Virus record (IMG/VR): IMGVR_UViG_3300032373_000001
From: a virus
Taxonomy: Duplodnaviria; Caudoviricetes
Direction: 5' to 3' (one strand)
Length of the DNA stretch: 64,000 nucleotides
Below, piece by piece: positions 13,629 to 60,750 of the stretch. Position 1 is the stretch's first letter; each line of letters starts with the position of its first letter. The notes beneath the pieces were generated by a model. The model did not search any database, was not told where the DNA came from, and was given only the letters and a program-made list of their open reading frames with translations. Position numbers and translations under genes: made by a program.

Positions 13629-13649
13629 CACCTCCTTAGTCAGGAGGTG
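13629..13649 (-). promoter_or_regulatory. RBS-sequestering hairpin
   Basis: CACCTCCT-gacta-AGGAGGTG, then 4 nt to GTG start at 13624. Confidence 0.7.
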
Positions 13650-13657
13650 TTACCTGA

Positions 13658-14059
13658 TCAAAGAGTCCGGACACTCCCGTCACCCCAGGGCCAGTTGCCC
13701 TGAGGTTCCTCACATTCTTCCAATCTCTCCAGGAGGTTGCCATCCCACCAGACGGTGAGGTCATAGGGGGCGGGCTCGCCCGTCACATCCTCAGCCATCC
13801 AGCACTCTTGAGCCAGATCCCAGGCATCACAGAGCGCATCACATGCCTGGGGGTCGAAGAAGTCGCAAGCCACGGCGATGTGAGCGCTGATGGAGCCCAG
13901 GCAGTTCGCATCGTACTGGGGGCTCGACCCCCAGTCCTCGCACTCCTCCAGGCGGCCCATCCAATCCCCTACGTCGCCGCTAAACTCCGTAGCGTCAGGG
14001 CAGACGTTCTCGGGGATCATGACAGCTTGAGCCCCGTTGAGCAGGAAAACCAGCAACAT
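13658..14059 (-). CDS. Acidic hypothetical protein
   Basis: RBS AGGAGGTGAG; start MLLVFLL. Confidence 0.6.
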   Translation of the reverse strand: MLLVFLLNGAQAVMIPENVCPDATEFSGDVGDWMGRLEECEDWGSSPQYDANCLGSISAHIAVACDFFDPQACDALCDAWDLAQECWMAEDVTGEPAPYDLTVWWDGNLLERLEECEEPQGNWPWGDGSVRTL

Positions 14060-14102
14060 TCCCTCACCTCCTACTCTTAGAGAGCCTGGATAGCCAGGAG
14101 AC

Positions 14103-14744
14103 CTACATGAGATCCCGGAAAGCCTTCCGGAAGGTGTTCTGCTTGCTCGCCTCGTCGCGGATCTCTCGGGCAAGTTGGGGGTCCAGCGGGTTCCAGGTCG
14201 ACCACCTCTTCAGAGTACCGTTCCGGTCCAACCTCTTGAGGGTTGAGGTCTCCAGACCTGCCGAACGCAAGCGGCCGATCAGCGGGTCATGAGGGCGGTA
14301 GTCATGGCCGCAATTGCCGCAGAAGTTGGCCGCTGCGGGGAAGCGAGTACTCTCGCAGACCGGACACTCAGTGATGGGGTTGCTGAGCTTGTACCCCCGA
14401 CCGCAGCTGTAGCAGTACTGGGCATCGGCAGGAGTCCTCGCCGCCTCACAGAAGCCACACTTCTTGCTCTCTTCCGGGGTCGGCACATATGCCTTGAGCT
14501 GAAGCCTCTCTCCCAGAGCTTCGTAGGCGAGGTTCAGGTCCCGTGTCTTCAGGCCCCTCGCTTCTTTCTCCTCGGGGTCCTGGGTGAAGTCGGGGTGGTG
14601 TTCACGGAGCAGCTTGCGCCACTGAGGTTTCAAGACCTCTTCCTTCCACCGGGCGACCTCTTCGTTAACCTCGGCCTGCTTCATGGTCTTAGAGATCTTG
14701 GGGCGCGGGAGCTCCAGCACCTCCATGGCTCGCTTCAGTTTCAT
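14103..14744 (-). CDS. J-domain (DnaJ-like) protein with double zinc ribbon
   Basis: WRKLLREHHPD...DLNLAYEAL; four CxxC pairs. Confidence 0.75.
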   Translation of the reverse strand: MKLKRAMEVLELPRPKISKTMKQAEVNEEVARWKEEVLKPQWRKLLREHHPDFTQDPEEKEARGLKTRDLNLAYEALGERLQLKAYVPTPEESKKCGFCEAARTPADAQYCYSCGRGYKLSNPITECPVCESTRFPAAANFCGNCGHDYRPHDPLIGRLRSAGLETSTLKRLDRNGTLKRWSTWNPLDPQLAREIRDEASKQNTFRKAFRDLM

Positions 14745-14747
14745 GGG

Positions 14748-14858
14748 CTACTCCTCGCCCAGGGATGCCATGTGGAAGCGGAGTCTCCACCCGTCCCTGC
14801 CTCGGACAGGCACGACCCCCCCGAACGGGACAGGACCGTATCGGGTCCTGTGGCTCAT
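14748..14858 (-). CDS. Small hypothetical protein (36 aa)
   Basis: ATGA coupling. Confidence 0.4.
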   Translation of the reverse strand: MSHRTRYGPVPFGGVVPVRGRDGWRLRFHMASLGEE

Positions 14859-15067
14859 CGGCTCTCCCGCGTAGGGGCGGCGTGGTATTCCCGCTCCAAG
14901 ATGCCCAAGAAGCGGCGAACCTTCTCCGGGTCCTCCCCTCGAACTTCGAGGGTGCCGTCGCGGAAGTGCATGACGGCCACTCCCTCCTGCTCCGCCCGCT
15001 CGTGGATCCGGACGCGCTGCGCGGCGCTTCGCAGGACTCTCCAGGGGATATAGGCGTACTGCCACAT
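14855..15067 (-). CDS. Small hypothetical protein
   Basis: Start MWQYAY after AGAGG. Confidence 0.55.
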   Translation of the reverse strand: MWQYAYIPWRVLRSAAQRVRIHERAEQEGVAVMHFRDGTLEVRGEDPEKVRRFLGILEREYHAAPTRESR

Positions 15068-15075
15068 GGGGACCT

Positions 15076-15519
15076 CTACTTGCGTTGTTGAAGGACGGTA
15101 CACGCCCGGTGCGTGAGCCGCCACCCGAACGGATTACCGCTCCGAGAACACCTGCGGAGGTAGCCTGCACGCTCAAGACGCCCCAAGGGGGCCAGGGCCT
15201 CTTCGGGTCGTGCGCCTGAGCGTGCTGCCAGGTCCTCAGTGTTGAACCCTTCCCAATCCCAGACGCGCCGCAACCAATACGACTCCTCGGACGTGTCCCC
15301 CTTCAGCGCTTCCCGCACCCCACGAGTCTCCCGAGAGAGGCAGGCAGCGCCGATACCCAAGAGGGTAGTCTGCACGGCAACCTGGGTCGGCGACAGACCC
15401 CCCAAGGCACGAATTTCGGCCATCGCCTTCGCGAGGCGGTCGGGCTGGTCGAACAAGCCGTAGAAGCGGTCGGTGAGGTCGAGGGTGTAGCCGCTTCGGA
15501 TCTCCGTTTCCCAGTCCAT
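15076..15519 (-). CDS. Hypothetical protein with C-terminal winged-helix-like segment
   Basis: TEDLAARSG...LGRLERAGYL...WRLT. Confidence 0.55.
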   Translation of the reverse strand: MDWETEIRSGYTLDLTDRFYGLFDQPDRLAKAMAEIRALGGLSPTQVAVQTTLLGIGAACLSRETRGVREALKGDTSEESYWLRRVWDWEGFNTEDLAARSGARPEEALAPLGRLERAGYLRRCSRSGNPFGWRLTHRACTVLQQRK

Positions 15520-15522
15520 CGC

Positions 15523-15702
15523 TCAGTCCTCCAGCTTGTCCTTGATCTTCTCGAAGCGGCTGTCGGAGGTCTGAATCCGCGCCTTGAGTGCGGGGGTCAG
15601 GACCATCATCTCCAGGGGGCCTCGATGCCCGTATCCGGCGAGGTCATGCTCGATGGCGAGGGACTTGATCCGCTCGATCTGCTCCGGGGTCGGCATCTTC
15701 AT
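15523..15702 (-). CDS. Small hypothetical protein (59 aa, not in ORF track)
   Basis: Manual translation MKMPTPEQIERIKSLAIEHDL...; fills intergenic gap. Confidence 0.6.
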   Translation of the reverse strand: MKMPTPEQIERIKSLAIEHDLAGYGHRGPLEMMVLTPALKARIQTSDSRFEKIKDKLED

Positions 15703-15734
15703 GGCCAGAGCTCCAGGGTTGGGGGCTTGGAGGT

Positions 15735-16469
15735 TTAAGGCTTACCGTTGAACCTCCCCGTGCGGGTGAGACCTGCATACCAGGCGGGATTGCAACGGGA
15801 GGCTACCGGTGAGCGAGGGGGATGCCCGGAGGAGCGGAAGTGTACGACCTCGTCCAGGGAAATCATCGCGGAGCGGCGGAGCCGATGGCTCCACCCCTTG
15901 AGCCCGAACCTCTCCGCCAAGTTGGTTTTCTTCTTGTCCCGGCGAGCTTCGGAGAGGTCTCCCGCTTTCTGGCGGTTCTTCTTCGTCAGCGAACGCCGCT
16001 GTTTCCGGTTGAGCAGCGGGTGCCGCAAGAGGATCTTGTAGGAGGATTGGCCGAAGAGGTTCCCACCCTCCAAGAACTCGGCGAGGTCTTGGCACAGCAC
16101 CCGGAGTAGGCGATAGGGGTGATTGGGCGGCTTCCAGTACATCCGCCAGTGTCTCGCCGTCGCGGTCACCTCGTCATACTCAGGGCTCAAGAGGCGAGCG
16201 ATGCTCGCCGCTGAGTCTTCTCCCTCGCGAAGCCACTGAGCGAACTCGGCTTCCTCGCGCTGATGGTGCTTGTACTGGCGCAGTCGCATCTTGAGCCCTG
16301 CCACGATGGATTCCGGATCCGCAGCCAAGATCTCCAGGGCCTGCCGTCGATGGTTGGGGTTTTCACTCAGGAAGAGCTCCTCCCAACGAGCCCAGGCCCT
16401 CCGGTTCTCTTCCTCTACGTCCTTGCGGAGCCTGAATCCGCGCCGCTCATGATTGCCTGGTGTTGTCAT
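15735..16469 (-). CDS. Hypothetical protein (carries recurrent module variant)
   Basis: LFLSENPNHRRQALEIL. Confidence 0.55.
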   Translation of the reverse strand: MTTPGNHERRGFRLRKDVEEENRRAWARWEELFLSENPNHRRQALEILAADPESIVAGLKMRLRQYKHHQREEAEFAQWLREGEDSAASIARLLSPEYDEVTATARHWRMYWKPPNHPYRLLRVLCQDLAEFLEGGNLFGQSSYKILLRHPLLNRKQRRSLTKKNRQKAGDLSEARRDKKKTNLAERFGLKGWSHRLRRSAMISLDEVVHFRSSGHPPRSPVASRCNPAWYAGLTRTGRFNGKP

Positions 16470-16515
16470 GAGCACCCTTACTCGGGGGTACAGCCCACCA
16501 ACCGAGGAGTGCTGG

Positions 16516-17079: not shown

Positions 17080-17080
17080 G

Positions 17081-18148: not shown

Positions 18149-18206
18149 GATTTGGCTCCTTTTAGGCAAGGTTGCTTACTTGCTTCTTTATGGGATGGCA
18201 GTCTGC

Positions 18207-18398
18207 ATGTCGAACAAAGATCCCAGCTACACCGGCAACCCTGGCGGCCAGCCCCTCTACCCCAATGAGATCGACCACGGGTACGAAGAGCCCATTCGTG
18301 GGGGGACAGGGGTGATGAGGGACTTGGTCAAGAGCCTACGGCACGAGCAGGGCAGGACCTCTGCCCTGCGGGTCGCCATCCTTGCGGGAAGGGTCTGA
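18207..18398 (+). CDS. Small plus-strand protein
   Basis: Divergent from 17081-18148; start MSNKDPS. Confidence 0.55.
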   Translation: MSNKDPSYTGNPGGQPLYPNEIDHGYEEPIRGGTGVMRDLVKSLRHEQGRTSALRVAILAGRV

Positions 18399-18401
18399 CC
18401 C

Positions 18402-20536: not shown

Positions 20537-20928
20537 TCTTCCCCTCCGTCGAAGTAAAGGTTGATCTCGGCCACCCGAGGATCACCCACCCCCAACCCGC
20601 AACACCACTTGGAGTCCTTCGGGCTCCAGTGGCAGCGTGCCGTGCCTCTCTTACCCTTCTTGAGGGCGCGCTCGGCCTTGAGTGCTTCGGATCTGTTCGC
20701 ATAGGGTCCGAAAATCGCACGGATTCGCCAGGGCCTCCACTTGCTGGTGTAACGCCCTCCCCCCTTCAGCTCTCCGTTGTGTTGCCGGAGTCTGCGAAGC
20801 GGGTCGGTGGTCATCCCCACATAGTGGAACCCTGGCAGCGGGCGACCCCGCTTGCCAGTCCTGACTTGAAGGCTCTGGATCACATAGACCCAGTATGGGT
20901 TGGACTTCTTCACCTCTCCCAAGGCCAC
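20533..20928 (-). CDS. GIY-YIG nuclease, SLX1/YhbQ-like
   Basis: WVYVI...HYVGMTTDPLRRLRQHNGELKGGGRYT..WRPW...EALKAE. Confidence 0.9.
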   Translation of the reverse strand: MALGEVKKSNPYWVYVIQSLQVRTGKRGRPLPGFHYVGMTTDPLRRLRQHNGELKGGGRYTSKWRPWRIRAIFGPYANRSEALKAERALKKGKRGTARCHWSPKDSKWCCGLGVGDPRVAEINLYFDGGED

Positions 20929-24940: not shown

Positions 24941-25180
24941 CTATCGGAGGGCCTGGAAGTGGTGCTCGGCTTCGTAGTTCAGGACATGAAGGGGGTGCGT
25001 CCTGTAGGGCAGGTCAATTGGCGGCGGGGTCCACAGGTAGGTGTCGCGGTCATGCTCCGCCTGCTCCCTCTCAACATCCGTCAGGCACAATGGGAGAGAA
25101 GGGGCCGCTCGGGCGGCGGTGCGGAACCACCACTCACCTTTCGGCGGACCCGCCCGCATCAGAACTTCGGGTCGGTCCAT
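24941..25180 (-). CDS. Small hypothetical protein
   Basis: Start placed at MDRPEVL. Confidence 0.5.
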   Translation of the reverse strand: MDRPEVLMRAGPPKGEWWFRTAARAAPSLPLCLTDVEREQAEHDRDTYLWTPPPIDLPYRTHPLHVLNYEAEHHFQALR

Positions 25181-25431
25181 GCGGGGCTCCCATTCTCGGG
25201 AGGGCGGCATGGGAACACCTGCACGACCGTCCACTTGTGAAGGTGGTACTCGTCCCCGAAGAACCGCAGCGGCTCCATCTCCCGGCTGTCTTCCGGAAGG
25301 TTGAAGAAGTACTCGCCGCAGATCTGGGTGAGGTGCCCCATCATCCAGACGTAGCCGTCCGGTCCGTAGAGCCTGAGCCAGAACCAGTCGGTGTTGCTCT
25401 GGCTCAGGCTGCTCTTGAGGTCAGCACTCAT
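25159..25431 (-). CDS. Small hypothetical protein
   Basis: RBS GGAGGGG; MSADLK. Confidence 0.55.
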   Translation of the reverse strand: MSADLKSSLSQSNTDWFWLRLYGPDGYVWMMGHLTQICGEYFFNLPEDSREMEPLRFFGDEYHLHKWTVVQVFPCRPPENGSPAWTDPKF

Positions 25432-34154: not shown

Positions 34155-34571
34155 CTATTCGAGGGGTCGCACCCAAAGGGCTCTGGGCTTACCGCGCGTG
34201 GTGCCCATGTAGAACTCTACCGGCTGACCAGCCAGCGGCACCCAACTACGCCGACACTCTGCTCGGTGGAAGAAGACCGGATCTGCGCAGTAGTCCAAGA
34301 ACCCCCACCCTCGCGCGGGGTCGAAGCGAGTCACCTCCCCCTGTAGCAGAGGAGGTTCTACGCTGCGGGTCACTTCCAACGCAGCAGGGCGACGACCCCC
34401 ACCCTCTTTGATCCGACCCAGGGTGACGGTTTCCCCCAAGATCGGAAGCGGGCCTCCGGGCCGAACCCTTCGGAAGGCTTCCGCATGAAAGAAGACCTCC
34501 TCAGTGGGGTCGTCTTCCTTCGCGCAGAACCCGAAGCCTTCGGCCGGGTTGTATGCGGATACCCGCCACAT
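34155..34571 (-). CDS. Tandem cold-shock-domain protein
   Basis: Two CSDs: YNPAEGFGFC...VFFH and FDPARGWGFL...VFFH (RNP1/RNP2). Confidence 0.85.
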   Translation of the reverse strand: MWRVSAYNPAEGFGFCAKEDDPTEEVFFHAEAFRRVRPGGPLPILGETVTLGRIKEGGGRRPAALEVTRSVEPPLLQGEVTRFDPARGWGFLDYCADPVFFHRAECRRSWVPLAGQPVEFYMGTTRGKPRALWVRPLE

Positions 34572-35156: not shown

Positions 35157-35525
35157 TCAGGATCGAATGGCTCGGGGCAATCGTACCCGCACTCCAGCAG
35201 TCACCTGCTTCTTTTGTACGGCGTCTACGAAAGCCTGGTCCGATGTTAGGAGGGCCGTGCGCCGAGGATTCAGCGCAATCAGATCGGCGAGTCGCAGCTG
35301 ACTAATCGGGTCCAGGTCCGGAAAGATCCTGCAAAAGTCGGCCCTGGCAGCAGGGCTGCGCTCGATCCCGTTCAGGATGAACTCATCCTGAAGTAGGGCC
35401 GGCAGGTCTGGGTCCTTGACGACGACAAGCCGACCATCAGGGAGCTCTTCCGCTGTGTTGGGGCCCCCCACCAAGCCGTTGCGGTCTTGGTTGAAAGTCC
35501 AGTACCCGTAAAGCAACGTCGACAT
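35157..35525 (-). CDS. Hypothetical protein
   Basis: RBS GGAGG lies in a hairpin. Confidence 0.65.
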   Translation of the reverse strand: MSTLLYGYWTFNQDRNGLVGGPNTAEELPDGRLVVVKDPDLPALLQDEFILNGIERSPAARADFCRIFPDLDPISQLRLADLIALNPRRTALLTSDQAFVDAVQKKQVTAGVRVRLPRAIRS

Positions 35526-35530
35526 CCGAG

Positions 35531-35562
35531 GGCTTCCTCCGCAGGAGTTGCGGAGAATAGCC
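35531..35562 (-). promoter_or_regulatory. RBS-sequestering hairpin
   Basis: GGCTATTCTCCGCA-actcc-TGCGGAGGAAGCC (7-bp core plus bulged extension). Confidence 0.55.
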
Positions 35563-36195: not shown

Positions 36196-36230
36196 AAAAA
36201 AGCCCCTCCCAGTCATGGGAGGGGCTTTTT
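36196..36230. terminator. Bidirectional intrinsic terminator
   Basis: AAAAAGCCCCTCCCA-gtca-TGGGAGGGGCTTTTT with A/T tracts on both sides. Confidence 0.85.
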
Positions 36231-36439: not shown

Positions 36440-36494
36440 GGGGGTTCTCCTGTAGGGGCCTTACGACCCCTCGGAGGATAGCTCCACTACCGGA

Positions 36495-39421: not shown

Positions 39422-39450
39422 TTACGGCACCCCCAGGAGGCGGAAATCAA
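39422..39450 (-). promoter_or_regulatory. Putative phage promoter TTGATTTCCG-N14-CGTAA
   Basis: Identical motif and spacing at 40893 and 45323; 30 nt upstream of start 39392. Confidence 0.6.
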
Positions 39451-40860: not shown

Positions 40861-40890
40861 TGAGGGGCGAGCCAACTGGCTCGCCCCTCA
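40861..40890 (-). other. Leader hairpin just downstream of promoter motif
   Basis: TGAGGGGCGAGCCA-ac-TGGCTCGCCCCTCA perfect inverted repeat. Confidence 0.65.
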
Positions 40891-40892: not shown

Positions 40893-40921
40893 TTACGGCG
40901 CGGAATCCCTTCGGAAATCAA
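40893..40921 (-). promoter_or_regulatory. Putative phage promoter TTGATTTCCG-N14-CGTAA
   Basis: Exact motif and spacing. Confidence 0.6.
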
Positions 40922-42693: not shown

Positions 42694-43149
42694 CTACGCG
42701 CTCTGCTGCTGTTGCTTCTTGTAGGCTTGCCAGCGCTCCAAGAAGGTATCGATCTTGTCCCAGTAGGGCTTGCCGGTGAGGTCTGCCCCCGTCTCGCTCT
42801 GGGAGCCCAGCGGGTGCACCAGCTTTTGGATGGTCTCGGGGTTGAGGATGCGCTTGGCGGCATCCCCTCGGATGCCGTGGCTCCAGACGTAGGCTCCGGC
42901 CCAGCGCCAGCCCGCCTCGAACCTCTTGCGGGGGTCGGTGTCGACGCCCAGCAAGTAGAGGTAGTTGCCCTCGAACTGGAGGGCCAAGCTCAGTACCCGC
43001 TGCCAGTTGGGACCGCCTTCGCGGGCCTGCTGCTGGTAGGAGGCCATGAGCCGCAGGGCTCGGGCGCGGGCTGCGTCATTCTTGAGGGGAGCCGTCCAAT
43101 CGAACTCCCTCAAGTTCCATGCGAACTGCTCCAGGGTCACACCGCTCAT
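42694..43149 (-). CDS. Hypothetical protein, paralog of 44771-45292
   Basis: Shared GWRW.GAY.W.HG and DLTG.P.W motifs. Confidence 0.7.
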   Translation of the reverse strand: MSGVTLEQFAWNLREFDWTAPLKNDAARARALRLMASYQQQAREGGPNWQRVLSLALQFEGNYLYLLGVDTDPRKRFEAGWRWAGAYVWSHGIRGDAAKRILNPETIQKLVHPLGSQSETGADLTGKPYWDKIDTFLERWQAYKKQQQQSA

Positions 43150-43174
43150 CCGTCACTCCTCATCAGGAGTACGG
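43150..43174 (-). promoter_or_regulatory. RBS-sequestering hairpin
   Basis: CCGT-ACTCCT-gatg-AGGAGT-g-ACGG then ATG. Confidence 0.6.
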
Positions 43175-43204
43175 TTACGGTACTGACAAGCCTGGGAAGG
43201 CTGA

Positions 43205-44689: not shown

Positions 44690-44718
44690 TTACGGGCAAA
44701 AGCAGAATCAGAAAGCAA
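44690..44718 (-). promoter_or_regulatory. Promoter variant TTGCTTTCTG-N14-CGTAA
   Basis: 8/10 match with identical spacing. Confidence 0.5.
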
Positions 44719-44754
44719 GCAATCCTCCAGCTTTGGGAAAAGCTGGAGGATTGC
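44708..44754 (-). terminator. Intrinsic terminator overlapping next promoter
   Basis: 16-bp stem GCAATCCTCCAGCTTT/AAAGCTGGAGGATTGC with T-rich tail TTGCTTTCTGA on minus strand. Confidence 0.7.
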
Positions 44755-45322: not shown

Positions 45323-45351
45323 TTACGGCAGCGAATTTGAGCGGAAATCAA
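45323..45351 (-). promoter_or_regulatory. Putative phage promoter TTGATTTCCG-N14-CGTAA
   Basis: Exact motif and spacing. Confidence 0.6.
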
Positions 45352-46758: not shown

Positions 46759-46932
46759 TTACCCGGTCCCAACGAGTCTACAAATTCCGGCGACCTTTGA
46801 CCCAACCTTGCCCCAAAAAGGAGGGGAGGTCCCGCAGATAAACTTGCTTGGGGCGGCATCCAGGCTTGGAAATCCATCGATGTAAAATTTCCCATTCAGA
46901 AGGTTGGTTGTCTTGTAGACCGTAAACCGCAT
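46759..46932 (-). pseudogene. Truncated GIY-YIG (seg-like) homing endonuclease remnant, 57 aa
   Basis: Manual translation MRFTVYKTTNLLNGKFYIDGFPSLDAA...; N-terminus matches the Y(K)TTNLxNGKxYIG signature; RBS GGAGG. Confidence 0.7.
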
Positions 46933-46975
46933 GAATCCTCCGAGGGTAACAACAGTTGTTACCCTCGGAGGATTC
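46933..46975 (-). promoter_or_regulatory. 21-bp perfect inverted repeat occluding the endonuclease RBS
   Basis: GAATCCTCCGAGGGTAACAAC-n-GTTGTTACCCTCGGAGGATTC directly followed by ATG. Confidence 0.85.
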
Positions 46976-46988
46976 CTTAGATACGAGA

Positions 46989-47406
46989 TGGAGATGTCGG
47001 GAATCGAACCCGAGTCCTCAGCGAATCGTCAGCGTGCGTCTACGTGCGTATCCTCAGTTGATGATGCCCGGACCCCGTCGAGGAACCCCTTGGTACAGGC
47101 ATGGCCAGCTACAGCATTAGAGCGTCAGCGAGTATTGTATTCTCGTCCCTCTCCACCGCTTTGCCAGAGCGGCTTCCTGGGACTATCCAGGTCTTGATGC
47201 GCCCGAACCTAAGACCCTGACATCTACAGGACGGACGGAGGCTCCAGTTAAGGAGCTAAGAGGCTCACGCCGCGAGGCGTACACCCCCCTCAAAGTAGTT
47301 GACGTTGTTTGCATCTACCGTGTTGACTGATTGTTCACAGGGGTTGAGTCTTCCCCTGGCACGCGGCAACCCTCGATCTTCACCGAGTCGAAACCAGTGC
47401 ATCCCC
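46989..47406 (-). ncRNA. ssrA: tmRNA (418 nt), tag ANNVNYFEGGVRLAA at 47265-47312
   Basis: 5' GGGGAUG pairs with 3' CAUCUCC-A including G3.U; D-loop-like CACUGGUUUCGAC; T-arm CUCGGGUUCGAUUCCCGAC; GCACGUAGA element; tag begins GCA after UAGAU and ends LAA-UGA; CCA not encoded. Confidence 0.95.
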
Positions 47407-50125: not shown

Positions 50126-50479
50126 TTACCCTTCCTTGCGAAGAACCCCCCGGATACTGAACACTCGATTGTTGAGGGGGTCGTACACGTAGGCTGAGCC
50201 ACCCTCATAGGAGCAGGCGTTTTGGAGGTGCTCTTGTACGCTCCCAGGCCACACATCCACCAAGTTCCCGCAGTCCAGCGGAAACTTCCAGCCCCCGAAC
50301 TTGTTGGTCCTTGCCCCTGGGGGGATCAACAGCGCCACGGTGTTCCACCGCTCGAAGGGAACCAGCAGGTCCCAGTCGTCGGGGGTCTTGGTCGAGACCC
50401 CTGCGAAGACCCGTGCAGTGCTGCCCGCGATCAGCGCCCCCTCCCGGCACATGCGGTAGACCAGGCCAGGGAGCTTCAT
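50126..50479 (-). CDS. Minimal nucleotidyltransferase-fold protein
   Basis: LIAGSTAR...DDWDLLV (hG[GS]...DxD) and third acidic residue in VDVW. Confidence 0.6.
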   Translation of the reverse strand: MKLPGLVYRMCREGALIAGSTARVFAGVSTKTPDDWDLLVPFERWNTVALLIPPGARTNKFGGWKFPLDCGNLVDVWPGSVQEHLQNACSYEGGSAYVYDPLNNRVFSIRGVLRKEG

Positions 50480-50901
50480 TCCTCACCCTCGACGGGGAAG
50501 TGCGCCCTCATCTCCTGGTCGTAGCGTAGGAGCTGCATTTCCGCAGCATCCTGAGCGATCTGACCCAGCTCTCGGAAGAGAGAGCGCACTCGCAGGGCCT
50601 GCCCTGCGTTGAGGGCGACGGATTCCCGTGGGGAACCCTCACTCCTGTCCTTCGTGCTCTCGACGTAGAGGTAGCCGGGTTGCGGGGGGTCCATATGGAA
50701 CCGGACATGAAAGAAGAGGTCCCTGTAGGCCCAGCGGTGAGCATCAGGGTCGACGGGTTCCTTGGGGTCGCGACCCCAGACATACCTGCAAAAGGTCCCG
50801 GCCGTCTCTGCGAAGTGCCTCAGCTTGCCCAAGGACTGGGCCTGGGCAATGAACTCTTGCAGCTGTTGGTTGGTAGAGAACGCTTCCAAGAAGCTCTTCA
50901 T
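50476..50901 (-). CDS. Hypothetical protein
   Basis: RBS GGAGG lies in a hairpin. Confidence 0.65.
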   Translation of the reverse strand: MKSFLEAFSTNQQLQEFIAQAQSLGKLRHFAETAGTFCRYVWGRDPKEPVDPDAHRWAYRDLFFHVRFHMDPPQPGYLYVESTKDRSEGSPRESVALNAGQALRVRSLFRELGQIAQDAAEMQLLRYDQEMRAHFPVEGEE

Positions 50902-50904: not shown

Positions 50905-50924
50905 ATCCTCCCTCTGGGGAGGAT
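50905..50924 (-). promoter_or_regulatory. RBS-sequestering hairpin
   Basis: ATCCTCCC-caga-GGGAGGAT, then cga ATG. Confidence 0.65.
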
Positions 50925-50928: not shown

Positions 50929-51510
50929 CTATCGGAACAGGTCCAGCTCCCCCGCCAGCAAGCCTTGAAGCAGCTCAGGGATCAGGGCGGCCAGGGCCGC
51001 TTTCTGGCCTCGGCGCAGGCCTCGCTCAAGGAAGAGGTACTTCCGGAAGCCGGGGTGGATCCAGTACTTGCCTCCCGCCAATAGATCGGGCGTCGCCCTG
51101 ACGATGACCTCTCCGTCCTGGAGCACGATCCTCGCAGCCGGAACCTTCTTGCGGGTCAGCCACCTCATCTCAAAGGGCTCGGCGGGGCCTGGAGTCTTGC
51201 GCTCAGGGTCCAGAGGCGTGGTGGTGTGGTTGCGGGCAGTGGGCCAGTCTGACGTGATGATCAACGTGTTCCTACCCTGGACCCGGAACTTGAAGCTCTT
51301 GGCGAAGTCTGCTGTCTTGGGGATGGGTGCGGGCTGACCCCTCTTGCGGACGGCAGCAGCCTTCGCCGTGTCGGCGCGGATCTCTTCTTGGATCGCCTTA
51401 ATGATAATCGCCCCGGCACGCCGAAGCTGTGCCGGGGTCAGTATGATCTTCTTGCCGCTCAGGCTGCTGAGAGGGTCATCCCCTGTACTGAGCGTGACAT
51501 CATCGGGCAT
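50929..51510 (-). CDS. Putative virion morphogenesis / tail-completion protein (HK97 gp10-like)
   Basis: Position among structural genes; C-terminal WIHPG...FLERGL pattern. Confidence 0.5.
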   Translation of the reverse strand: MPDDVTLSTGDDPLSSLSGKKIILTPAQLRRAGAIIIKAIQEEIRADTAKAAAVRKRGQPAPIPKTADFAKSFKFRVQGRNTLIITSDWPTARNHTTTPLDPERKTPGPAEPFEMRWLTRKKVPAARIVLQDGEVIVRATPDLLAGGKYWIHPGFRKYLFLERGLRRGQKAALAALIPELLQGLLAGELDLFR

Positions 51511-51548
51511 CAATCCCTCCACCCAGTCAGCGAGGGATTGATGCCCGA
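51503..51548 (-). promoter_or_regulatory. 17-bp hairpin burying both RBS and start codon
   Basis: TCGGGCATCAATCCCTC-N12-GAGGGATTGATGCCCGA. Confidence 0.8.
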
Positions 51549-52510: not shown

Positions 52511-52564
52511 AAGGGGCTATACTCGCAGTCGTCTGGAAGAAAAGACCACGCAGGGGGCTTCCCC

Positions 52565-54706
52565 CTACGGCTTCTTTGTTCCCCCGCCGTAGGTGATATT
52601 ACCCCACACGGGGGTGCGACCCCGTTGCTCCCTGTTGTCGGGGATGCGGGCAACCTCAGTTGCCATCGGAGTGGCCTGATAGTCGTGACCTACCGGGTAC
52701 GGGGGCGAGTCCTCGCAGTCTGCATCCTCTGGCCGGGTGTATCGGGTCTCGGGCCAGGGCAGCTCTTCCAACTCGATGCGGTTCAGCGGCACCCCATAAC
52801 GGATGTCGTTGACGTCCAGGTGCGAGATGGTGAAGCTCTGTTGGAGCGTCCTACCTCGGTGTTGGGTAGGGGTCACAGGACCGATGCTGTACCGTTCCCC
52901 GTTCTGTTTAACGATGAAGTCGTACTGGGTCACCCGAGGACTCGGGCCGATCCAGACCTCATAGGAGTTCTCCAGCACCCGACCCATGACGGTCTGGGTC
53001 ACCTGCCGGGAGCTCTCTTGGGGACCCACGATCATATCGTAGGGGCCTTCGTAGCCGCCCCTCCAGCCCGTACCGTAGCACTGCAAGCAGCGGTTGAGGG
53101 GCTGCTTGGTGTACTCCTGAAGGCGAGCATCCCACACGCAGTCGCAGGGGACGCCGTTCATCCTCTTGATGTAGAGCTTGACTCGCTCTCCCCCCTGCTC
53201 CAGGATCCACCTGTTGCGGGCAATCATCTCCCGCTCTATGTAGGTGAACTGCTCCGACTCCATCGGAGAAACTGGCTCCGAGTACTCCAGCGGGGTCTCT
53301 ACGAGCCCGGAAGGACTCGTACCTGTCTGGTCGATGGCGACCGAGGTGATCCTGTAGAAGACCTTGTTGCGTCGGTCCAGGGTGTTCTCGAGCTTGGGTC
53401 CCTTCCTGTACCAGTAGCGGACCACCACCGTGGAGGTCTCAGTGGGAGTCGGCGGGTCTACCCAAGACTCAGTGCTCGGATCCCAGACGCGCTCCCGGCT
53501 CAGGTCAATCTCCCCCGCGGGGCCGAACACTGCCCGCACTGGTACTTGGGCCCCATCCACATAGACCTGAACATCATTGGGGGCATTGGCATGAACCGCA
53601 TTGAGGGTGGGGACGATGCCAGGATCCTTCACGATGGGTCGATAGCGGGTGCGGAGCCGATAGCCCTTGTTGTTGGGGGAGTTGCCTTGGAAGATCCAAC
53701 CCCCCTCCCAAGGGATGACCTCATTGGGGACCTCCGCCACGTCCGTGCGGTCCCTGTAGAAGAGGCCCTGGACCGGCACCCGGTTCACCCGGTAGTAAGG
53801 TCCCCGCTCCCCGGTGTCGCTACGGTAGATGTTGACGCCGACGATGTCCCAGACAGAGTTGTTCTTGCCGGGAGGGCACGGATAGCCCGCGCCGCCTTGG
53901 GTGGCGGGCTGACCCAGGACCAAGGCTGTAGAGTTGGTTGCCAGGGCGATGCCGTTGCCCAAGACGCCTTCTGGGACTGCCAGAAGGTTCACGCAGTTGA
54001 CGCTGCCCTCGGCTGTGACCAGCTTAGTGAAGGCGTTCAGCGGGTCATTGAGGGCAGCCGCGATGCTTGGCCCCGCATCGTTGATGTTGAAGTCGTTCCC
54101 GCCCGGAGTACGAGAGGTGCCCCCCGTCAGGACGAAGCCGCCGATGCTCAGGTAGGCTTGGTCGGTGCCCCCCGTCAGGGTGGTGTTGGAGGGAATGATG
54201 CTGGCCGAGGTCGAGGAGAGAGTGATGCTGCTCCCCGCCGCACCGGCAGCCGAGGCCGTGAGCTGAACCTGAGTGCCAGCCGCTACAGCTGTTGCGGTGC
54301 CCCACCCGGCCACTGAACCGTCATTGATCGCATCGGTGATGTTGGAAGCAACCACGGCAGGGTCCGCCGAACTGCCATCGAACTCATCAGCGAAGCCCGG
54401 AGGACCGTCCGTTGCGGTGAGGATGACCCCATCAACCTCCAGGGTCCCCCCCGCAGCGATAGGGGCGGAGATAACCGTGAAGGAGCCTGTTGCAGTTGCC
54501 TCGACTGTAGGAACGCCGTCGATGACCACCGAGGCATACGCAGGGCTCGGTGGCACCGTGTTGACGGTCGGGCCGGTGTCGAGCGTAGACGGATCATCCC
54601 AGCGCAGGTCCGACTCCGATGAGCGGAAAGCGCTCATCGCCATGAAGTTCTGCGGGGGCCACGGCCACTGCCCCGTCAGATCAGAACACCCTGCTTGCTG
54701 AGACAT
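52565..54706 (-). CDS. Virion protein: neck/head-completion-like C-terminal domain plus N-terminal Ala/Gly/Thr-rich repeats
   Basis: GERVKLYIK...CDC...CLQCYGTGWRGGY; duplicated N-terminal module; FN3-like GVNIYRS. Confidence 0.55.
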   Translation of the reverse strand: MSQQAGCSDLTGQWPWPPQNFMAMSAFRSSESDLRWDDPSTLDTGPTVNTVPPSPAYASVVIDGVPTVEATATGSFTVISAPIAAGGTLEVDGVILTATDGPPGFADEFDGSSADPAVVASNITDAINDGSVAGWGTATAVAAGTQVQLTASAAGAAGSSITLSSTSASIIPSNTTLTGGTDQAYLSIGGFVLTGGTSRTPGGNDFNINDAGPSIAAALNDPLNAFTKLVTAEGSVNCVNLLAVPEGVLGNGIALATNSTALVLGQPATQGGAGYPCPPGKNNSVWDIVGVNIYRSDTGERGPYYRVNRVPVQGLFYRDRTDVAEVPNEVIPWEGGWIFQGNSPNNKGYRLRTRYRPIVKDPGIVPTLNAVHANAPNDVQVYVDGAQVPVRAVFGPAGEIDLSRERVWDPSTESWVDPPTPTETSTVVVRYWYRKGPKLENTLDRRNKVFYRITSVAIDQTGTSPSGLVETPLEYSEPVSPMESEQFTYIEREMIARNRWILEQGGERVKLYIKRMNGVPCDCVWDARLQEYTKQPLNRCLQCYGTGWRGGYEGPYDMIVGPQESSRQVTQTVMGRVLENSYEVWIGPSPRVTQYDFIVKQNGERYSIGPVTPTQHRGRTLQQSFTISHLDVNDIRYGVPLNRIELEELPWPETRYTRPEDADCEDSPPYPVGHDYQATPMATEVARIPDNREQRGRTPVWGNITYGGGTKKP

Positions 54707-54764
54707 CTATGCTCGCTCCCTACGGAGAGGGCAGGATAAAGCCCCTAACGGGTAACAGGCCCTC

Positions 54765-55007: not shown

Positions 55008-55340
55008 TCAGCCCTCTCCAGGCTCCGTCGCATCTTCGAGCACCTTTCCGGGCTTCGCTGCCTGGGCAGCAATCTTTGCTACCCGAACGAAGCGGTCGAC
55101 ATAGGCGATGCCCAGGATGGCCCCGACCTCCAGGAACACCGTACATACGGTGAGGACGCACATCCACCACCACAGTCCGGTGCCCTCTGCTCCGGGGTGG
55201 CCCATCAAGACCCAGAGGCCAGCGCCCAGCAGGACCTTGGAGGTGATCTCCGAGAGCAAGAACGCCAAGAACTTCTTGCTCTCCAGCGGAGAGGGATCGC
55301 GGACTTCAACTTTGGCCGGCGCTTCTACGGGAGTGCTCAT
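55008..55340 (-). CDS. Small two-TM membrane protein, holin-like
   Basis: SKKFLAFLL, two TM helices, charged tail; late-gene context. Confidence 0.5.
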   Translation of the reverse strand: MSTPVEAPAKVEVRDPSPLESKKFLAFLLSEITSKVLLGAGLWVLMGHPGAEGTGLWWWMCVLTVCTVFLEVGAILGIAYVDRFVRVAKIAAQAAKPGKVLEDATEPGEG

Positions 55341-55352
55341 GCACTCCCGTAG
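55325..55352 (-). promoter_or_regulatory. 12-bp hairpin with RBS in stem and ATG in loop
   Basis: CTACGGGAGTGC-ATGA-GCACTCCCGTAG. Confidence 0.8.
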
Positions 55353-55998: not shown

Positions 55999-56084
55999 TC
56001 TCGACCTCCTGCCCAGCTGCGCAGATAAACTACCGAGCGGGATACCAATACGGGCGACATTTACGGAAATCCACGCCTTCGGGC

Positions 56085-59000
56085 TCACTGATCCTCGTCG
56101 TAAGTGAAGAGGAACTCGCCTTCACTGACGTACTGAGCTGCGCCAGGGTCCACGTTTTTGGCTCCTCCAGCGGGGTCGGTCGTCACAACATATGTGACCG
56201 CATAGCTGAAGGAAGGGGGGGCCGAACCTACAGCGAGCGAGACCAGGACGCGGTTCGCCGTCAGCTCCTTCCGACGAGCATCGAGGGCTTCGGATGTGGT
56301 GTAGCCTTGAGCCTGGAGCGTGGCATCATCCGAGACCCCTTCGATGCTACGCCCGTCCAGCCCAAGGATGTATGCCCGGCTACTGGAGACCCCCAAAGAA
56401 CTCAGGGAAGCTGACGCCTCCAGCAAGGTCAGGGCCGCATCATCTTGGAACACCCCACGGAACTCCCCCTCCGGACCCCCTCCGTCCGTGGTGGCGAACT
56501 GGAGCCCCTTGTTCAGGAGGTACACCGAGCTCTGGTTGGTGCTCAGAGAGGTCACGAAGGTGCTCTCGGAGGCAGTGTCTGTTGAGACCGCTTCCCGGAT
56601 GAGGAGCGCTCCCTCTTCCGGGAGCACGACCGAAAGCGGGACCACCACATAGCTCACGCCTTCTGTGTTCTCGATCACCCGGATCAGGTCACTCTGACGC
56701 ACTGCCTCGCTCAGGCGGAGGTTGTTGAAGTAGTTGGTCAGGTTGGTGCGCAAAGCAGCATCGACCGTAGCGCGGTCCCGGCCTTGAACCAGGACCACTG
56801 TTGCCTGAACCCCCAACGGGACCGCAGGAGACTCTTTGGCCAAGACGTCCGCCGTGGCATGCTTCTTCGTGTCGATGGCATCTTGGGTCTGAGTGACGAT
56901 GAGGTTGGTGGTGTAGGTGACCGTGAAGTTCTCGTCGTGCTCGTAGGAGACCAAGACCGTATCGCCGCTGACGATGCTGCCACCCTCAACGCGAGTGATG
57001 CTCAGAGCAGTGGTCTGGGTGCCCAGCGTGATGGTGTAGTCCGGAGAGCCGGAAGGGTCATCAGGACCCTTGTAAGTAGTGACGCCATCTGCACTCTTGA
57101 CCACAACCGTCAGGAAGTTGGCCCCCAGATTGTCCACCGACTCCGGGTAGGTGCCCAACAGGACATGGGACTCGTCCGTGACCGGAATCGGGTCCCCCGA
57201 AGGCAGAGTGCTCCCATCCTCTCCGGTGAAGCTGGAGATCTGGATGTAGGCCTGAGCAAGAATACTGCGACCTTCCTGCAACGGGGCATCTGGCCGGATC
57301 AGAGAAAACGCCGTGGAAGGAATGTCTCCCGTCTGAACACCGACCACCGAAGTCACAGAGTTGACTGGCTGACGGGGAAGAACGAAGGTGTTCCCAGCCC
57401 TGCGCCGATAGCTGCCCAAGACGACATCAGTGACGGCCACGGAGGGCTGGGTGATGGAAGTGTCGAGCTGGATGGTGTTGAAGGAGGTGACTGTCACCCC
57501 GGTCAGGTCAAACACTTCTCCGGAAGAGGCATTGCGGAACTCATAGCCTGCATCGGGGTCGTCGAGCATCTCGATGATAGGGTTAGACTCGCTGAGTAGC
57601 GAGTCCACCGCCTGGAAGGTGAGATCTTCCGGGTCCCCGATGACCTCGAACTGGATGTCTTGGCCGATCTCAAAGGTGAACGCGAAGGTGTCGGTCACGG
57701 TTGCCAGGTTGGTCCCCTGGACCCAGACGTCAACCTTCCCCCCTCGGTGAACCCCCCCATCGTCCAGGTCTCGCTGCATGAGCGGATCGCCAGCGGCGAC
57801 CACTTCCGCTTGGGTCACTCCGGGTTGGTCTGCGGCGGTCTGCAAGTACCCTTGGGCAGTCCCAGAGTCCACGCTGGCGAGGGCGTTGCGCACTCGGACC
57901 GTCAGCTCCAGGTTGCTCTCCCGGTCCCTTCCCGGAGACGGGGCGGCAGCGTTGACGACGCTGAGTGATCCAGGGAGGTTGCTCACGACCGAATTGATCT
58001 GGCCTCGGCCAACATTGCCTGCCGTGCCCAGCGTCAAGCACTTCACCGGGACCGTGACCTCGTAGCGGCCCGTCACGGGGTCGAAGTAGCTGGCGAGGTT
58101 GGCGAACTCGATCGAAGAGGCGCGGGTGGTGCTGAACTGAACACCGCCGCCGCTCACGATGGTGCCCAGGGGGAGAGGCAGCGTCTGGGTCGGGCGACGG
58201 GTGGTGAAGAAGGTCACCTCACCCTGGCTGGCAGTCCCCGAAAGTCTCTTCTTGCCGTAGTTACTGGCGGCAGCTTCGAAGGCGGAGTCGATGAGGTCTT
58301 GAGCGGCCTGGGACGAGTTCAAGAACAGGGCAGCCTGGAGCGCTTGCTTATAGGGGCTCTGGGAGACTGGGAGGCTTTCGTTGGAGCCGCTCGGGTCATC
58401 GATCTGAATCAAGAGGTCAGGCGTCCGTGCTCGGTTGAAGAAGTCCTGAATGAACCGCAGACGCAAGTTGGCCTGGGCGAACGGGTCGATGACCGTATCC
58501 CGCAGGGCACTCCCCGCCTCCACCTTGACCTGGGGGTTGCTACGGAAGACCGCAGTGATCCACTCCTGGACGATCTCTTGGCGGTTGGCGACGGGGATGC
58601 TCTGGAGGGTGGAGGTCACCGAGACCGGCCGACCCACCACCTCTTCGCTGAAAGAACTCTCGTACTCGATGTTGAGGGTGGCATCGTAGTACAAGCCCGT
58701 CACTACATAGTAGAGCGGCACGCTGTCGTCCAAGACCGCGAAGCTGCCGACCCGAACCGTGGCCGGAGTAGAAGTCGGCCCGGCAGTCCGGCTGTGGTCG
58801 AAGGAGTACTGCGTGAAGCTCCTCACCGATACCAGCGTCGAGGTGATCTTCACGGTGCGGGCTGTCTCGGGGGCCTCATACCTTTGAGTGAAGTCCGACT
58901 GGAGGGTGGTGCCGCCCTCATCCTCTTGAGAGCCCGCCAGTCGGTAGTAGAGGGGATCCGCGAGGGGATTCCCCTCTCCGTCCACCGGGACCTCCGCACT

Positions 59001-59552
59001 AACTTCCAAGGAACCGAACTCTTCATCCTCAGTTTCCGTGGTGCCTTCAGCGACAGGACTCACGTTGACCTGAGTGTAGCCCTCAGCACCTCCTCCGGGA
59101 AAAGCCGACGCATAGAAATTCAGACCCTGGAACCCAGTCGCGGCAGTGACCTCCGCTCGGACTTCAACGCTGGCGTTCTTCTGGTTCACGGAGATGTTCG
59201 TGGGCACTGCTGCCACCACCCCCGCAGCGTCAGGATCTACGATCCTGACCTGAGCGGCAGCGCTGGGCGTAACGGAGCCCGAAGGGAGGATTGCACGGAT
59301 CTCTACAGTGTTGAGTCCCTGGCTGAGGTACAGCCCCTCCGGCTCGGCAAGCGGGTTCGGGACAGTCCAGGCCCCGTCCCCCCACTGGACCAAGTCGGGG
59401 TCCGAGCTGAATCCAGAGCCGTCGATGCTGACCTGAACATCTACAGCATCGACTGGGATGGTCCCACTGAAGAAGCGCACTGACAAGCTGGTGCTGAAAT
59501 ACACCGACTCGCGGGCAACGCCATCGGGGCCAGTGACAGTCGGGTTCGCCAT
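56085..59552 (-). CDS. Large baseplate J/gp47-like wedge protein with accessory Ig-like domains
   Basis: GSALRDTVIDP, RLSGTASQGEVTFF, GTAGNV, GRDRESN.EL..R, GGKVDVWV baseplate-J pattern. Confidence 0.8.
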   Translation of the reverse strand: MANPTVTGPDGVARESVYFSTSLSVRFFSGTIPVDAVDVQVSIDGSGFSSDPDLVQWGDGAWTVPNPLAEPEGLYLSQGLNTVEIRAILPSGSVTPSAAAQVRIVDPDAAGVVAAVPTNISVNQKNASVEVRAEVTAATGFQGLNFYASAFPGGGAEGYTQVNVSPVAEGTTETEDEEFGSLEVSAEVPVDGEGNPLADPLYYRLAGSQEDEGGTTLQSDFTQRYEAPETARTVKITSTLVSVRSFTQYSFDHSRTAGPTSTPATVRVGSFAVLDDSVPLYYVVTGLYYDATLNIEYESSFSEEVVGRPVSVTSTLQSIPVANRQEIVQEWITAVFRSNPQVKVEAGSALRDTVIDPFAQANLRLRFIQDFFNRARTPDLLIQIDDPSGSNESLPVSQSPYKQALQAALFLNSSQAAQDLIDSAFEAAASNYGKKRLSGTASQGEVTFFTTRRPTQTLPLPLGTIVSGGGVQFSTTRASSIEFANLASYFDPVTGRYEVTVPVKCLTLGTAGNVGRGQINSVVSNLPGSLSVVNAAAPSPGRDRESNLELTVRVRNALASVDSGTAQGYLQTAADQPGVTQAEVVAAGDPLMQRDLDDGGVHRGGKVDVWVQGTNLATVTDTFAFTFEIGQDIQFEVIGDPEDLTFQAVDSLLSESNPIIEMLDDPDAGYEFRNASSGEVFDLTGVTVTSFNTIQLDTSITQPSVAVTDVVLGSYRRRAGNTFVLPRQPVNSVTSVVGVQTGDIPSTAFSLIRPDAPLQEGRSILAQAYIQISSFTGEDGSTLPSGDPIPVTDESHVLLGTYPESVDNLGANFLTVVVKSADGVTTYKGPDDPSGSPDYTITLGTQTTALSITRVEGGSIVSGDTVLVSYEHDENFTVTYTTNLIVTQTQDAIDTKKHATADVLAKESPAVPLGVQATVVLVQGRDRATVDAALRTNLTNYFNNLRLSEAVRQSDLIRVIENTEGVSYVVVPLSVVLPEEGALLIREAVSTDTASESTFVTSLSTNQSSVYLLNKGLQFATTDGGGPEGEFRGVFQDDAALTLLEASASLSSLGVSSSRAYILGLDGRSIEGVSDDATLQAQGYTTSEALDARRKELTANRVLVSLAVGSAPPSFSYAVTYVVTTDPAGGAKNVDPGAAQYVSEGEFLFTYDEDQ

Positions 59553-59554
59553 GA

Positions 59555-60721
59555 TTACCTACCGAAGAGGGAGTGGGTTCCGGTCAATCCTACCCCCTGG
59601 ATGCCCAGCGGCTGACCGTTACTGCCGCCCAGAGCAACGGCTCCAGGCACCGTGAACACAGTGGTCAGGCTCACTGGCTGGTTGGAGCCGTTGCGGACCA
59701 CGACCTCCACAAAGAACACCGTAGGGTCTTCCGCTGAGGGGGCCACGTCCACGTTCTGAATCTGGAACAGCTGCTCGCGCGAAGTCACCGACTGGTAACG
59801 TCGCTGCTGGTTTTGGAGCGCCTGAACTCGCTGGAGGGCATTCTGCACGTCCTCTCGCACCAAGGCTGCGGAGGCCGAGGCGAGCTTCTTGTTGAGGCGA
59901 GAGATGAGCTTGGAGCCGTAGCTGGGATAGAAGGGGTTGCTGCCCTGAACCGTGAGGATCGCCTTCAGGCAAGCCTGGTACAGCAGGTCCTCGTTCTGGA
60001 TGCGGATGACCTCGCCTTCCGGGTCGAAGCGCCAGTCGTTCTCCACCCAAGTCGCACCGCACCGAACACAGCGTTCTGGGGGCGAAGTGTAGCTGACCTT
60101 CAGGTCGGGGTTGTTCAGGAGCTTGGACCGGAATCGCGGATATCGCTTGGGCTGGAGACCCAGCTGCTGCAAGGAGGGATAGACGTCCTGTTGAGCGATC
60201 AGGTCCCACCCAGGATAGACGTTCTTGCCTCTCGTCCCCCGCTGAACGAAGCCCAGAGACTTGGACCCCGCGCCGCTGACCCGAACATAACTTGAGGGGC
60301 CGAGTTCGTTGCGGTCCTGGAGGTAGAGGGCACTGTTCTCGGAGCCTACTTCAACGAGGTTGTTCGCTGCAGTGTTCAGGCGGAAGGCACTGAGGACCCG
60401 GCTCAGGGGGATGCGGGTCCCCACGGGCAGGGAGACCGCGGAGGAACCTGACGAGGTTGTCACAGTGATCTGGTTGCCCGTCGACCCGATCAAGTCTTGG
60501 CACTGGCGGATTCGATAGGGGCCGAAGCCCCCCACCAGCCTCGCGGGAGCATCCAGCCCCGAAGAGGGGATGTAGAGGGAGTCGTTGGCCAGGATGCGCA
60601 CCGAACCTGCCCCCGCGACCGGAGACCGAGGAATGAGGCTCCTGCGGTCGGTGCTCAGAGCAACAGGCTCTTCCCGAATGTAATGGGGGCATTGCCACCC
60701 CAGCCGGATCTCAGTACTCAA
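59555..60721 (-). CDS. Baseplate wedge protein with C-terminal GPW/gp25-like domain
   Basis: LYQACLKAILTVQGSNPFYPSYGSKL; adjacent to baseplate J. Confidence 0.75.
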   Translation of the reverse strand: MSTEIRLGWQCPHYIREEPVALSTDRRSLIPRSPVAGAGSVRILANDSLYIPSSGLDAPARLVGGFGPYRIRQCQDLIGSTGNQITVTTSSGSSAVSLPVGTRIPLSRVLSAFRLNTAANNLVEVGSENSALYLQDRNELGPSSYVRVSGAGSKSLGFVQRGTRGKNVYPGWDLIAQQDVYPSLQQLGLQPKRYPRFRSKLLNNPDLKVSYTSPPERCVRCGATWVENDWRFDPEGEVIRIQNEDLLYQACLKAILTVQGSNPFYPSYGSKLISRLNKKLASASAALVREDVQNALQRVQALQNQQRRYQSVTSREQLFQIQNVDVAPSAEDPTVFFVEVVVRNGSNQPVSLTTVFTVPGAVALGGSNGQPLGIQGVGLTGTHSLFGR

Positions 60722-60727
60722 CTGCTT

Positions 60728-60750
60728 GACCCCTCCTGCCAGGAGGGGTC
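60728..60750 (-). promoter_or_regulatory. RBS-sequestering hairpin
   Basis: GACCCCTCCT-ggc-AGGAGGGGTC, then 6 nt to TTG start. Confidence 0.7.

Follow-up and report, generated by a model that had tools for sequence, protein, structure and literature searches.

Hairpins that bury Shine-Dalgarno sequences at a minority of genes in an uncultured huge phage

Does a huge phage hold the ribosome-binding sites of its genes shut with hairpins and, if so, at how many genes? The question is raised by a 64,000-nucleotide stretch of DNA (the window) from IMG/VR virus record IMGVR_UViG_3300032373_000001, which is part of a 410,989-bp contig of an uncultured huge phage. The GC content of the window is 62%, and almost all of its genes are on the minus strand. 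An initial annotation had pointed to eight hairpins there, each pairing the Shine-Dalgarno sequence (SD) of a minus-strand gene, and had proposed that this phage applies them as a broad, unified gating system across regulator, structural and lysis genes. We found that SD masking is real but limited to approximately 8% of genes, and is not widespread. It reveals no new mechanism, and it is not a new genome-wide gating system because the trick is known from phage T4 and also occurs in related phages and in phiCbK.

We found that all eight hairpins fold on the sense strand. The stems are perfect or near-perfect over 8-20 bp, with free energies of -13 to -35 kcal/mol, and the SD and/or the start codon is paired in a stable local helix. 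The energy needed to open the SD is 10-14 kcal/mol at the locked sites (locked meaning at least 10 kcal/mol), compared to means of 3-7 kcal/mol in shuffled sequences. The sites are as follows (energies are those of folding and of opening the SD, respectively).

13629-13649, minus strand: hairpin of 8 bp (-13.3 and 13.6 kcal/mol) with the anti-SD in the 5' arm and the SD in the 3' arm; masks the SD of gene 13052-13624 (GTG start; weak Pfam match to a helix-turn-helix (HTH) domain); upstream stop codon 8 nt before the hairpin.
35531-35562, minus strand: hairpin of 13 pairs and one bulged base (-19.2 and 10.2 kcal/mol); masks the SD of gene 35157-35525; begins 2 nt past the upstream stop.
43150-43174, minus strand: hairpin of 10 pairs and one bulged base (-13.4 and 11.8 kcal/mol), anti-SD ACTCCT and SD AGGAGT; ends at the ATG of gene 42694-43149; upstream stop 30 nt away.
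46933-46975, minus strand: perfect hairpin of 20 bp (-35.1 kcal/mol); its 3' arm holds the SD of a 57-amino-acid (aa) GIY-YIG endonuclease remnant (46759-46932, minus strand, ATG at 46932); no upstream open reading frame (ORF).
50905-50924, minus strand: hairpin of 8 bp (-12.8 and 10.0 kcal/mol); masks the SD of gene 50476-50901; upstream stop 4 nt away.
51503-51548, minus strand: hairpin of 20 pairs and one bulge (-35.1 and 12.5 kcal/mol); pairs both the SD and the ATG of gene 50929-51510; begins 7 nt past the upstream stop.
55325-55352, minus strand: hairpin of 12 bp (-22.7 and 12.9 kcal/mol) whose 5' arm contains the SD and whose 3' arm is formed by codons 2-5 of gene 55008-55340 (two transmembrane segments, holin-like), leaving the ATG in the loop; upstream stop 19 nt before the hairpin.
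60727-60751, minus strand: hairpin of 11 bp (-18.5 and 14.1 kcal/mol); masks the SD of gene 59555-60721 (TTG start; gp25-like, sheath-initiator); upstream stop 24 nt away.

The description in the initial annotation was largely borne out. A CTCC-type anti-SD forms the 5' arm and the SD the 3' arm at six of the sites, in agreement with the claim that most carry such an arm. Most of the hairpins were said to lack U-tails, and a T-rich tail follows 0/8 of them; none of the eight was listed by a terminator scan of 34-54 kb. Seven begin 2-30 nt past an upstream stop, and the eighth lies 10 nt past the 3' end of a gene for transfer-messenger RNA (tmRNA) and does precede an endonuclease remnant. Two other leaders enter the analysis. 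The first was absent from the initial list. The second had been described as a weaker hairpin before 54706; there is a structured leader, but it costs little to open.

25186-25216, minus strand: additional locked SD before gene 24941-25180; opening energy 12.3 kcal/mol.
54707-54760, minus strand: leader of a gene for a 713-aa protein, weakly structured in the window; opening energy only 5.6 kcal/mol.

Strongly masked SDs are in excess of chance. We folded the region from -45 to +18 around 103 starts and compared each with controls in which the flanks were dinucleotide-shuffled and the segment from SD to start was kept fixed. The opening energy was at least 10 kcal/mol at 9/103 genes, compared to 1.67 +/- 1.39 in the shuffles (maximum 5 in 60 shuffles), and at least 12 kcal/mol at 5 genes, compared to 0.42: a five-fold and a twelve-fold enrichment, respectively. 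SD accessibility as low as that of 13629-13649 was found in 0/40 shuffles. The bulk of the 103 genes was not shifted. Mean opening energy was 4.25 kcal/mol (3.86 in shuffles), 20 genes reached at least 6 kcal/mol (17.7 in shuffles), and the counts at thresholds of at least 2 and at least 4 kcal/mol were the same. Similarly, the mean probability that the SD is unpaired was 0.348 compared to 0.360 after shuffling, with 24 and 19.5 genes, respectively, below 0.1. Because only the tail, and not the bulk, departs from the shuffles, the trait is not widespread. The prediction of reduced SD accessibility thus held for the tail and failed for the 103 genes as a whole. Perfect hairpins with a stem of at least 7 bp are themselves abundant, with 83 in the window compared to 38 +/- 7 in dinucleotide shuffles. 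By our reading, palindromes of the form CTCC...GGAG and GGAG...CTCC number approximately 10 and 9 in the window, and there is no orientation bias to use. Gene calls were self-trained; they agree with public calls on the same contig over 49.5-64 kb, including the starts behind four hairpins, and gene starts elsewhere in the window are partly our own calls.

A smaller excess of the same kind was found in relatives. A megablast search of 8 kb against phage records gave no match, and a scan of viral contigs with a single protein found no relatives; an alignment-based scan later recovered them. We fetched 147 relative loci by means of the conserved 713-aa protein and used 95 non-redundant loci, with 1,781 genes, for the opening-energy test. 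In these huge-phage loci, 45 genes reached at least 10 kcal/mol (17.3 +/- 2.3 expected) and 23 reached at least 12 kcal/mol (4.2 expected); again, the bulk was unchanged. The observed share of locked genes was 8.7% in this phage and 2.5% in the relatives, which places this phage at the high end. The SDs of locked genes in relatives were slightly stronger than others (p = 0.006). Because the ratio of observed to expected was equal for strong and weak SD classes, SD strength is unable to separate a switch from a throttle. The hairpin copies of the window itself had no close relatives among the sequences fetched. Three loci from two other samples (L149, L151 and L152; ERZ27251191 and SRR9045848) were 100% identical to this phage over 2.4-11.7 kb and showed no strain variation.

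Among cultured phages, the Caulobacter phiCbK group is nearest, with an aa identity of only approximately 26%. We sampled 100 kb of the GC-matched phiCbK genome (NC_019405.1, 100001-200000; L153 and L154; 170 genes) and found that 10/170 genes reached at least 10 kcal/mol, compared to 2.3 expected. The device is therefore not peculiar to the phage in which it was first proposed. The phiCbK hairpins, however, belong to one repeated cassette, present in at least 13 copies per 100 kb, whereas those of the window share no cassette. The phiCbK cassette consists of TTGACA-N17-TAGAAG, a short variable arm, a conserved CGACGACAAC box, the SD and the ATG. The variable arm is often complementary to the SD, so that the anti-SD arm comes right after a promoter-like -10 box. 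Some of these hairpins are annotated as rho-independent terminators directly before a coding sequence, and they are mentioned neither in the genome paper (PMC3556154) nor in the XRE paper.

Comparison of orthologous genes indicates that the stem is kept at two of them, the 713-aa gene and the gp25-like gene, despite sequence change. The leader of the 713-aa gene in 22 relatives, with 15 distinct sequences among them, is built of a promoter-like motif, then 0-2 nt, then an 8-bp hairpin that buries the SD. All 15 distinct sequences fold, with G-U wobbles and compensatory changes (GC/AT, CG/TA, CG/GC), and in a covariance-model alignment 85% of cells pair, compared to 41-52% when the partner is slid. 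These wobbles and compensatory changes indicate that the hairpins act at the RNA level, on the sense strand. The loop of this leader is conserved and reads GTATGACTGA. The window's own version, before 54706, is degenerate relative to that of the relatives. At the gp25-like gene, an SD-burying stem of different sequence is kept in 4/9 relatives (L003, L062, L076 and, more weakly, L011). This gene has a TTG start wherever the SD is buried (in the window and in these four) and an ATG or GTG start in the five relatives without the hairpin. At gene 50929-51510, one of approximately 53 orthologues, that in L001/L002, has an SD-burying hairpin of different sequence.

The placement of the hairpins bears on what they are for. 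At 43150, 60727, 55325 and 51503 there is slack of 19-30 nt after the stop, or the hairpin extends into the ORF, yet all four end at or over the SD and start codon. Because hairpins hug the start codon where slack exists, and because the SD core is always in the stem, SD occlusion appears to be a selected property and not a geometric accident. With somewhat better than even confidence, we interpret the hairpins as cis-acting SD occluders of the T4 type, which insulate particular cistrons from read-through RNA or throttle them, with release that probably differs from site to site. An anti-SD arm in the short spacer after the previous gene would allow RNA reading in from upstream to fold, and the downstream gene would then be poorly translated. 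An opening cost of 10-14 kcal/mol corresponds, in thermodynamic models, to approximately one to two orders of magnitude less translation. Where a promoter abuts or overlaps the 5' arm, as at some sites, it could yield a transcript without that arm; T4 e, soc and I-TevI are built in this way. The stem at 50905 could be melted by a ribosome that terminates 4 nt upstream, and at other sites the hairpin may simply fix a low level of translation. The targets fit products that are needed at low dose or at a critical time: an HTH regulator, a holin-like protein, a baseplate protein of low copy number whose gene starts with TTG, and a nuclease remnant. The set of sites is mixed, and includes a likely tmRNA terminator, promoter-abutting hairpins (43150, 60727) and intra-operon hairpins (35531, 51503, 55325).

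Of known systems, the closest is the set of hairpins that sequester ribosome-binding sites at T4 e, soc, 49 and I-TevI, where late promoters lie in the 5' strand (PMC3014915). As in those genes, and in segB and Aeh1 mobE, the SD and/or AUG lies in a local helix whose 5' strand is just upstream, and one GIY-YIG homing-endonuclease gene and one holin-like gene for lysis are among the targets. At 43150, at 60727 and at many genes of the relatives, the 5' arm adjoins a promoter-like motif, a candidate for a nested promoter. In contrast to T4, the motifs are TGATTTC-N15-CCGTAA and CGGTAG-N5-CTAT, which are unrelated to the TATAAATA of T4, and the stems in this GC-rich genome are much stronger. The share of locked genes here (approximately 8%) seems to exceed the handful of genes documented in T4.

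The promoter-like motif TGATTTC-N15-CCGTAA occurs in the window in three exact copies (39422-39449, 40893-40920 and 45323-45350, minus strand) and one copy with a single mismatch (44690-44717, minus strand), which comes immediately after a terminator-like hairpin at 44719-44754. All four copies are on the coding strand, and a start codon follows the CCGTAA box after 29-53 nt. The exact word GATTTCCG occurs five times in the window, always in intergenic sequence and in sense orientation. Of the motif C-GGTA[G/T]-N5-CTAT, the loci of relatives (L006-L147) contain 111 distinct exact copies; those listed lie approximately 15-45 nt before start codons, on the coding strand, at structural-region genes (e.g., L055:9945-9959, L021:3696-3710). 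In this huge-phage family the motif is likely to serve as a late-type promoter. The window has one exact and one near copy (36478-36492 and 60753-60767), and GGTAG-N4-ACTAT with up to 2 mismatches was not enriched in the window (17 compared to 17.7 expected). Copies beside two of the hairpins are as follows.

43175-43202, minus strand: degenerate TGATTTC-N15-CCGTAA (3 mismatches, CCGTAA exact), directly abutting the 5' arm of hairpin 43150.
60753-60767, minus strand: one-mismatch copy of CGGTA-N6-CTAT, 1 nt before the 5' arm of hairpin 60727.

The 5' arms of 13629 and 50905 (GGTAA in both), of 43150 and of the non-SD hairpin 40861 each adjoin a [CG]GTAA box, an arrangement with a chance probability of approximately 4e-5 in a test that was chosen post hoc. 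The last of these (40861-40890, minus strand) is a 13-bp hairpin 2 nt past the CCGTAA box of an exact motif copy; transcription from that motif would probably begin within the stem, and an overlap of terminator and promoter is possible. A fifth [CG]GTAA-adjacent case lies approximately 7 kb past the end of the window (L148, about 2650-2684), where a locked SD (13.4 kcal/mol) precedes a gene for a 467-aa protein. The build there, a CGGTAA box, 1 nt, and a stem of TGCCTCC...GGAGGTG, is the same as at 13629 and 50905.

The association with the motif was also found in relatives. Genes with CGGTAG-N5-CTAT within 75 nt, the class most enriched in locked SDs, were locked in 7/66 cases (1.1 expected), compared to 38/1,715 genes without the motif. 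Two orthologues, in L055 (gene start at 20877) and L077 (gene start at 20618), carry the anti-SD arm within the variable spacer of the motif, and this arm covaries with the SD flank. Provided that the motif is a promoter, the gene's own transcript excludes the arm, as in the T4 design.

Several results weigh against T4-type occlusion. Five of the eight sites are without a recognizable full promoter: a -35 box was not found at 13629 or 50905, and no promoter motif could be recognized at 35531, 51503 or 55325. If CGGTAG-N5-CTAT fires right after CTAT, as in T7-like or AR9-like promoters, the hairpin would be inside the gene's own transcript and the choice of promoter would give no relief. The covariation in the 713-aa leader is modest, with two pairs that show double changes and a score matched by 38/500 shuffles, and the covariance model of the relatives' leader gave no match to the window's leader at E <= 1. 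The hairpin at gene 50929-51510 is poorly conserved, with 2/53 orthologues at 8 kcal/mol or more. Overall, conservation among orthologues is patchy.

Alternatively, the hairpins might be intercistronic terminators, attenuators, 3'-end stabilizers or ribosome termination structures (RTS), with burial of the SD a by-product of short gaps. We regard this as unlikely. Seven of the 9 locked SDs are in same-strand gaps of 20-60 nt directly after a stop, and they account for 7/22 such junctions, compared to 2/72 genes in the other same-strand gap classes and 0/24 genes with longer gaps. Four hairpins begin only 2-8 nt past the stop. An RTS is a stable fold centered approximately 9 nt past the stop in gaps of at least 25 nt, and it is reported to be a general feature of bacteria (bioRxiv 10.1101/2020.02.10.941153); an RTS, too, would be expected to insulate the distal gene. 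However, an RTS is defined from the stop, and three of the hairpins here (43150, 60727 and 55325) begin 19-30 nt past it and sit against the start codon. In addition, 51503 and 55325 reach into the ORF and cover the ATG.

Features relevant to the terminator alternative lie nearby, as follows.

36197-36230, minus strand: 15-bp hairpin with A5 and T5 flanks, a canonical two-way intrinsic terminator; the stem also reads CCCCTCCC/GGGAGGGG.
44719-44754, minus strand: 16-bp hairpin with a T-rich tail, terminator-like; not an SD lock.
46986-47406, minus strand: phage tmRNA gene (ARAGORN; Rfam RF00023, 118.6 bits) with tag peptide ANNVNYFEGGVRLAA.

Like rho-independent terminators, the eight hairpins are GC-rich stem-loops at gene ends, and CCTCC/GGAGG stems are found in the terminators at 36197 and 44719 too. 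Some locked SDs of relatives are classic T-tailed terminators that abut an ATG, and the phiCbK equivalents are partly annotated as terminators. The position of 46933-46975 just past the tmRNA gene suggests that it is likely a tmRNA terminator or processing stem, and also a lock on the endonuclease gene. On the other side, the polymerase that transcribes this region uses ordinary terminators. Because T-tailed terminators occur nearby (36197, 44719 and the canonical one at 52549-52569), the SD hairpins, which have no U-tract, are poor terminator candidates. Whatever their origin, burial of the SD at 10-14 kcal/mol would still lower translation.

The hairpins might also be opened by translational coupling as a general mechanism, in which the stem is melted by a ribosome that finishes the upstream gene, and the downstream protein is made only when, and in proportion as, the upstream one is. 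This is improbable. Ribosome-mediated unfolding is an established mechanism (review, PMC12548453; model, PMC4538824). The hairpins here are in short, operon-like same-strand junctions with the distal SD in the 3' arm, and the geometry of 50905 fits. A terminating ribosome at that site would open most of the 8-bp stem. Most of the other stems are too far from the stop or too long. A terminating ribosome holds approximately 9-10 nt of mRNA 3' of the stop, and at 13629 (8 nt), 51503 (7 nt, 20 pairs) and 35531 (2 nt, SD in the inner stem) it would open no more than a few outer pairs. The hairpins at 55325 (19 nt), 60727 (24 nt) and 43150 (30 nt) are beyond its reach, and 46933 has no upstream ORF. 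Among relatives, locked SDs are enriched also at genes with long or divergent upstream gaps (12/265, compared to 3.6 expected). Because only 50905 is clearly within the footprint, coupling is unlikely to be the general means of release.

It is very unlikely that the hairpins and the abutting [CG]GTAA/CTAT boxes form a phage-wide timing switch, in which approximately 8% of genes would be silent on early read-through RNA and released together, either by a class of phage promoter firing inside the stems or by an RNA chaperone such as a tandem cold-shock-domain (CSD) protein. If such a switch existed, the regulator, the holin-like gene, the baseplate genes and the nuclease remnant would be held silent early and then freed together. 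We give hardly more than passing weight to a gate acting in trans, through which the tandem CSD protein or another phage RNA chaperone or helicase would open all anti-SD hairpins at a set time. The two-domain CSD gene reported at 34155-34571 is indeed present, and TGACT occurs in the loops of three window hairpins (13629-13649, 36197-36230 and 51503-51548). However, nothing ties the CSD gene to the sites. The stems have no common sequence or loop signature beyond SD and anti-SD, they range from 8 to 20 bp with varied stability, and the set is mixed in function and position. We rejected TGACT or TGAC as a general loop motif: it was absent from 86 locked hairpins extracted from relatives, an extraction that missed the 713-aa leaders. 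The same excess in phiCbK, in a different promoter-linked cassette, also argues against a gate of this kind. Finally, that the hairpins are a chance by-product of a 62% GC genome, with G-rich SDs pairing with C-rich flanks, merits next to no credence: bulk SD accessibility is indistinguishable from shuffles, but the enriched tail appeared again in two independent sets of data, the stems of 8-20 bp are perfect, and two orthologous genes retain the structure although the sequence has changed.

The window also holds genes for an NAD-dependent ligase, a sigma-like protein, and baseplate J and gp25-like proteins. Directly upstream of the baseplate genes, at 60776-63324 (minus strand), are genes for a bpMoxR-type AAA ATPase (492 aa) and a VWA-domain protein (356 aa) with overlapping stop and start. 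A 13-bp intergenic hairpin with the core CTGGGGGTA...TACCCCCAG occurs both in the window (1135-1165, minus strand) and in a relative of approximately 50% aa identity (L003:15206-15234), and overlaps no SD.

Taken together, the proposal of a broad, unified system is not supported: the site set is mixed, approximately 8% of genes are affected, and overall SD accessibility equals that of shuffles. What remains is a set of particular genes, among them the gp25-like baseplate gene, the holin-like gene, the HTH regulator and the homing-endonuclease remnant, that are probably insulated from upstream transcription. In T4, hairpins that occlude the ribosome-binding site have been studied at a few genes; among GC-rich large and huge phages they can be measured and they recur. 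They exceed chance by approximately 7% of genes in this phage, 2% on average in the 95 relatives and 5% in phiCbK, and are frequently linked to phage promoter motifs. In such genomes, a short intergenic stem-loop should not be annotated as a terminator by default.

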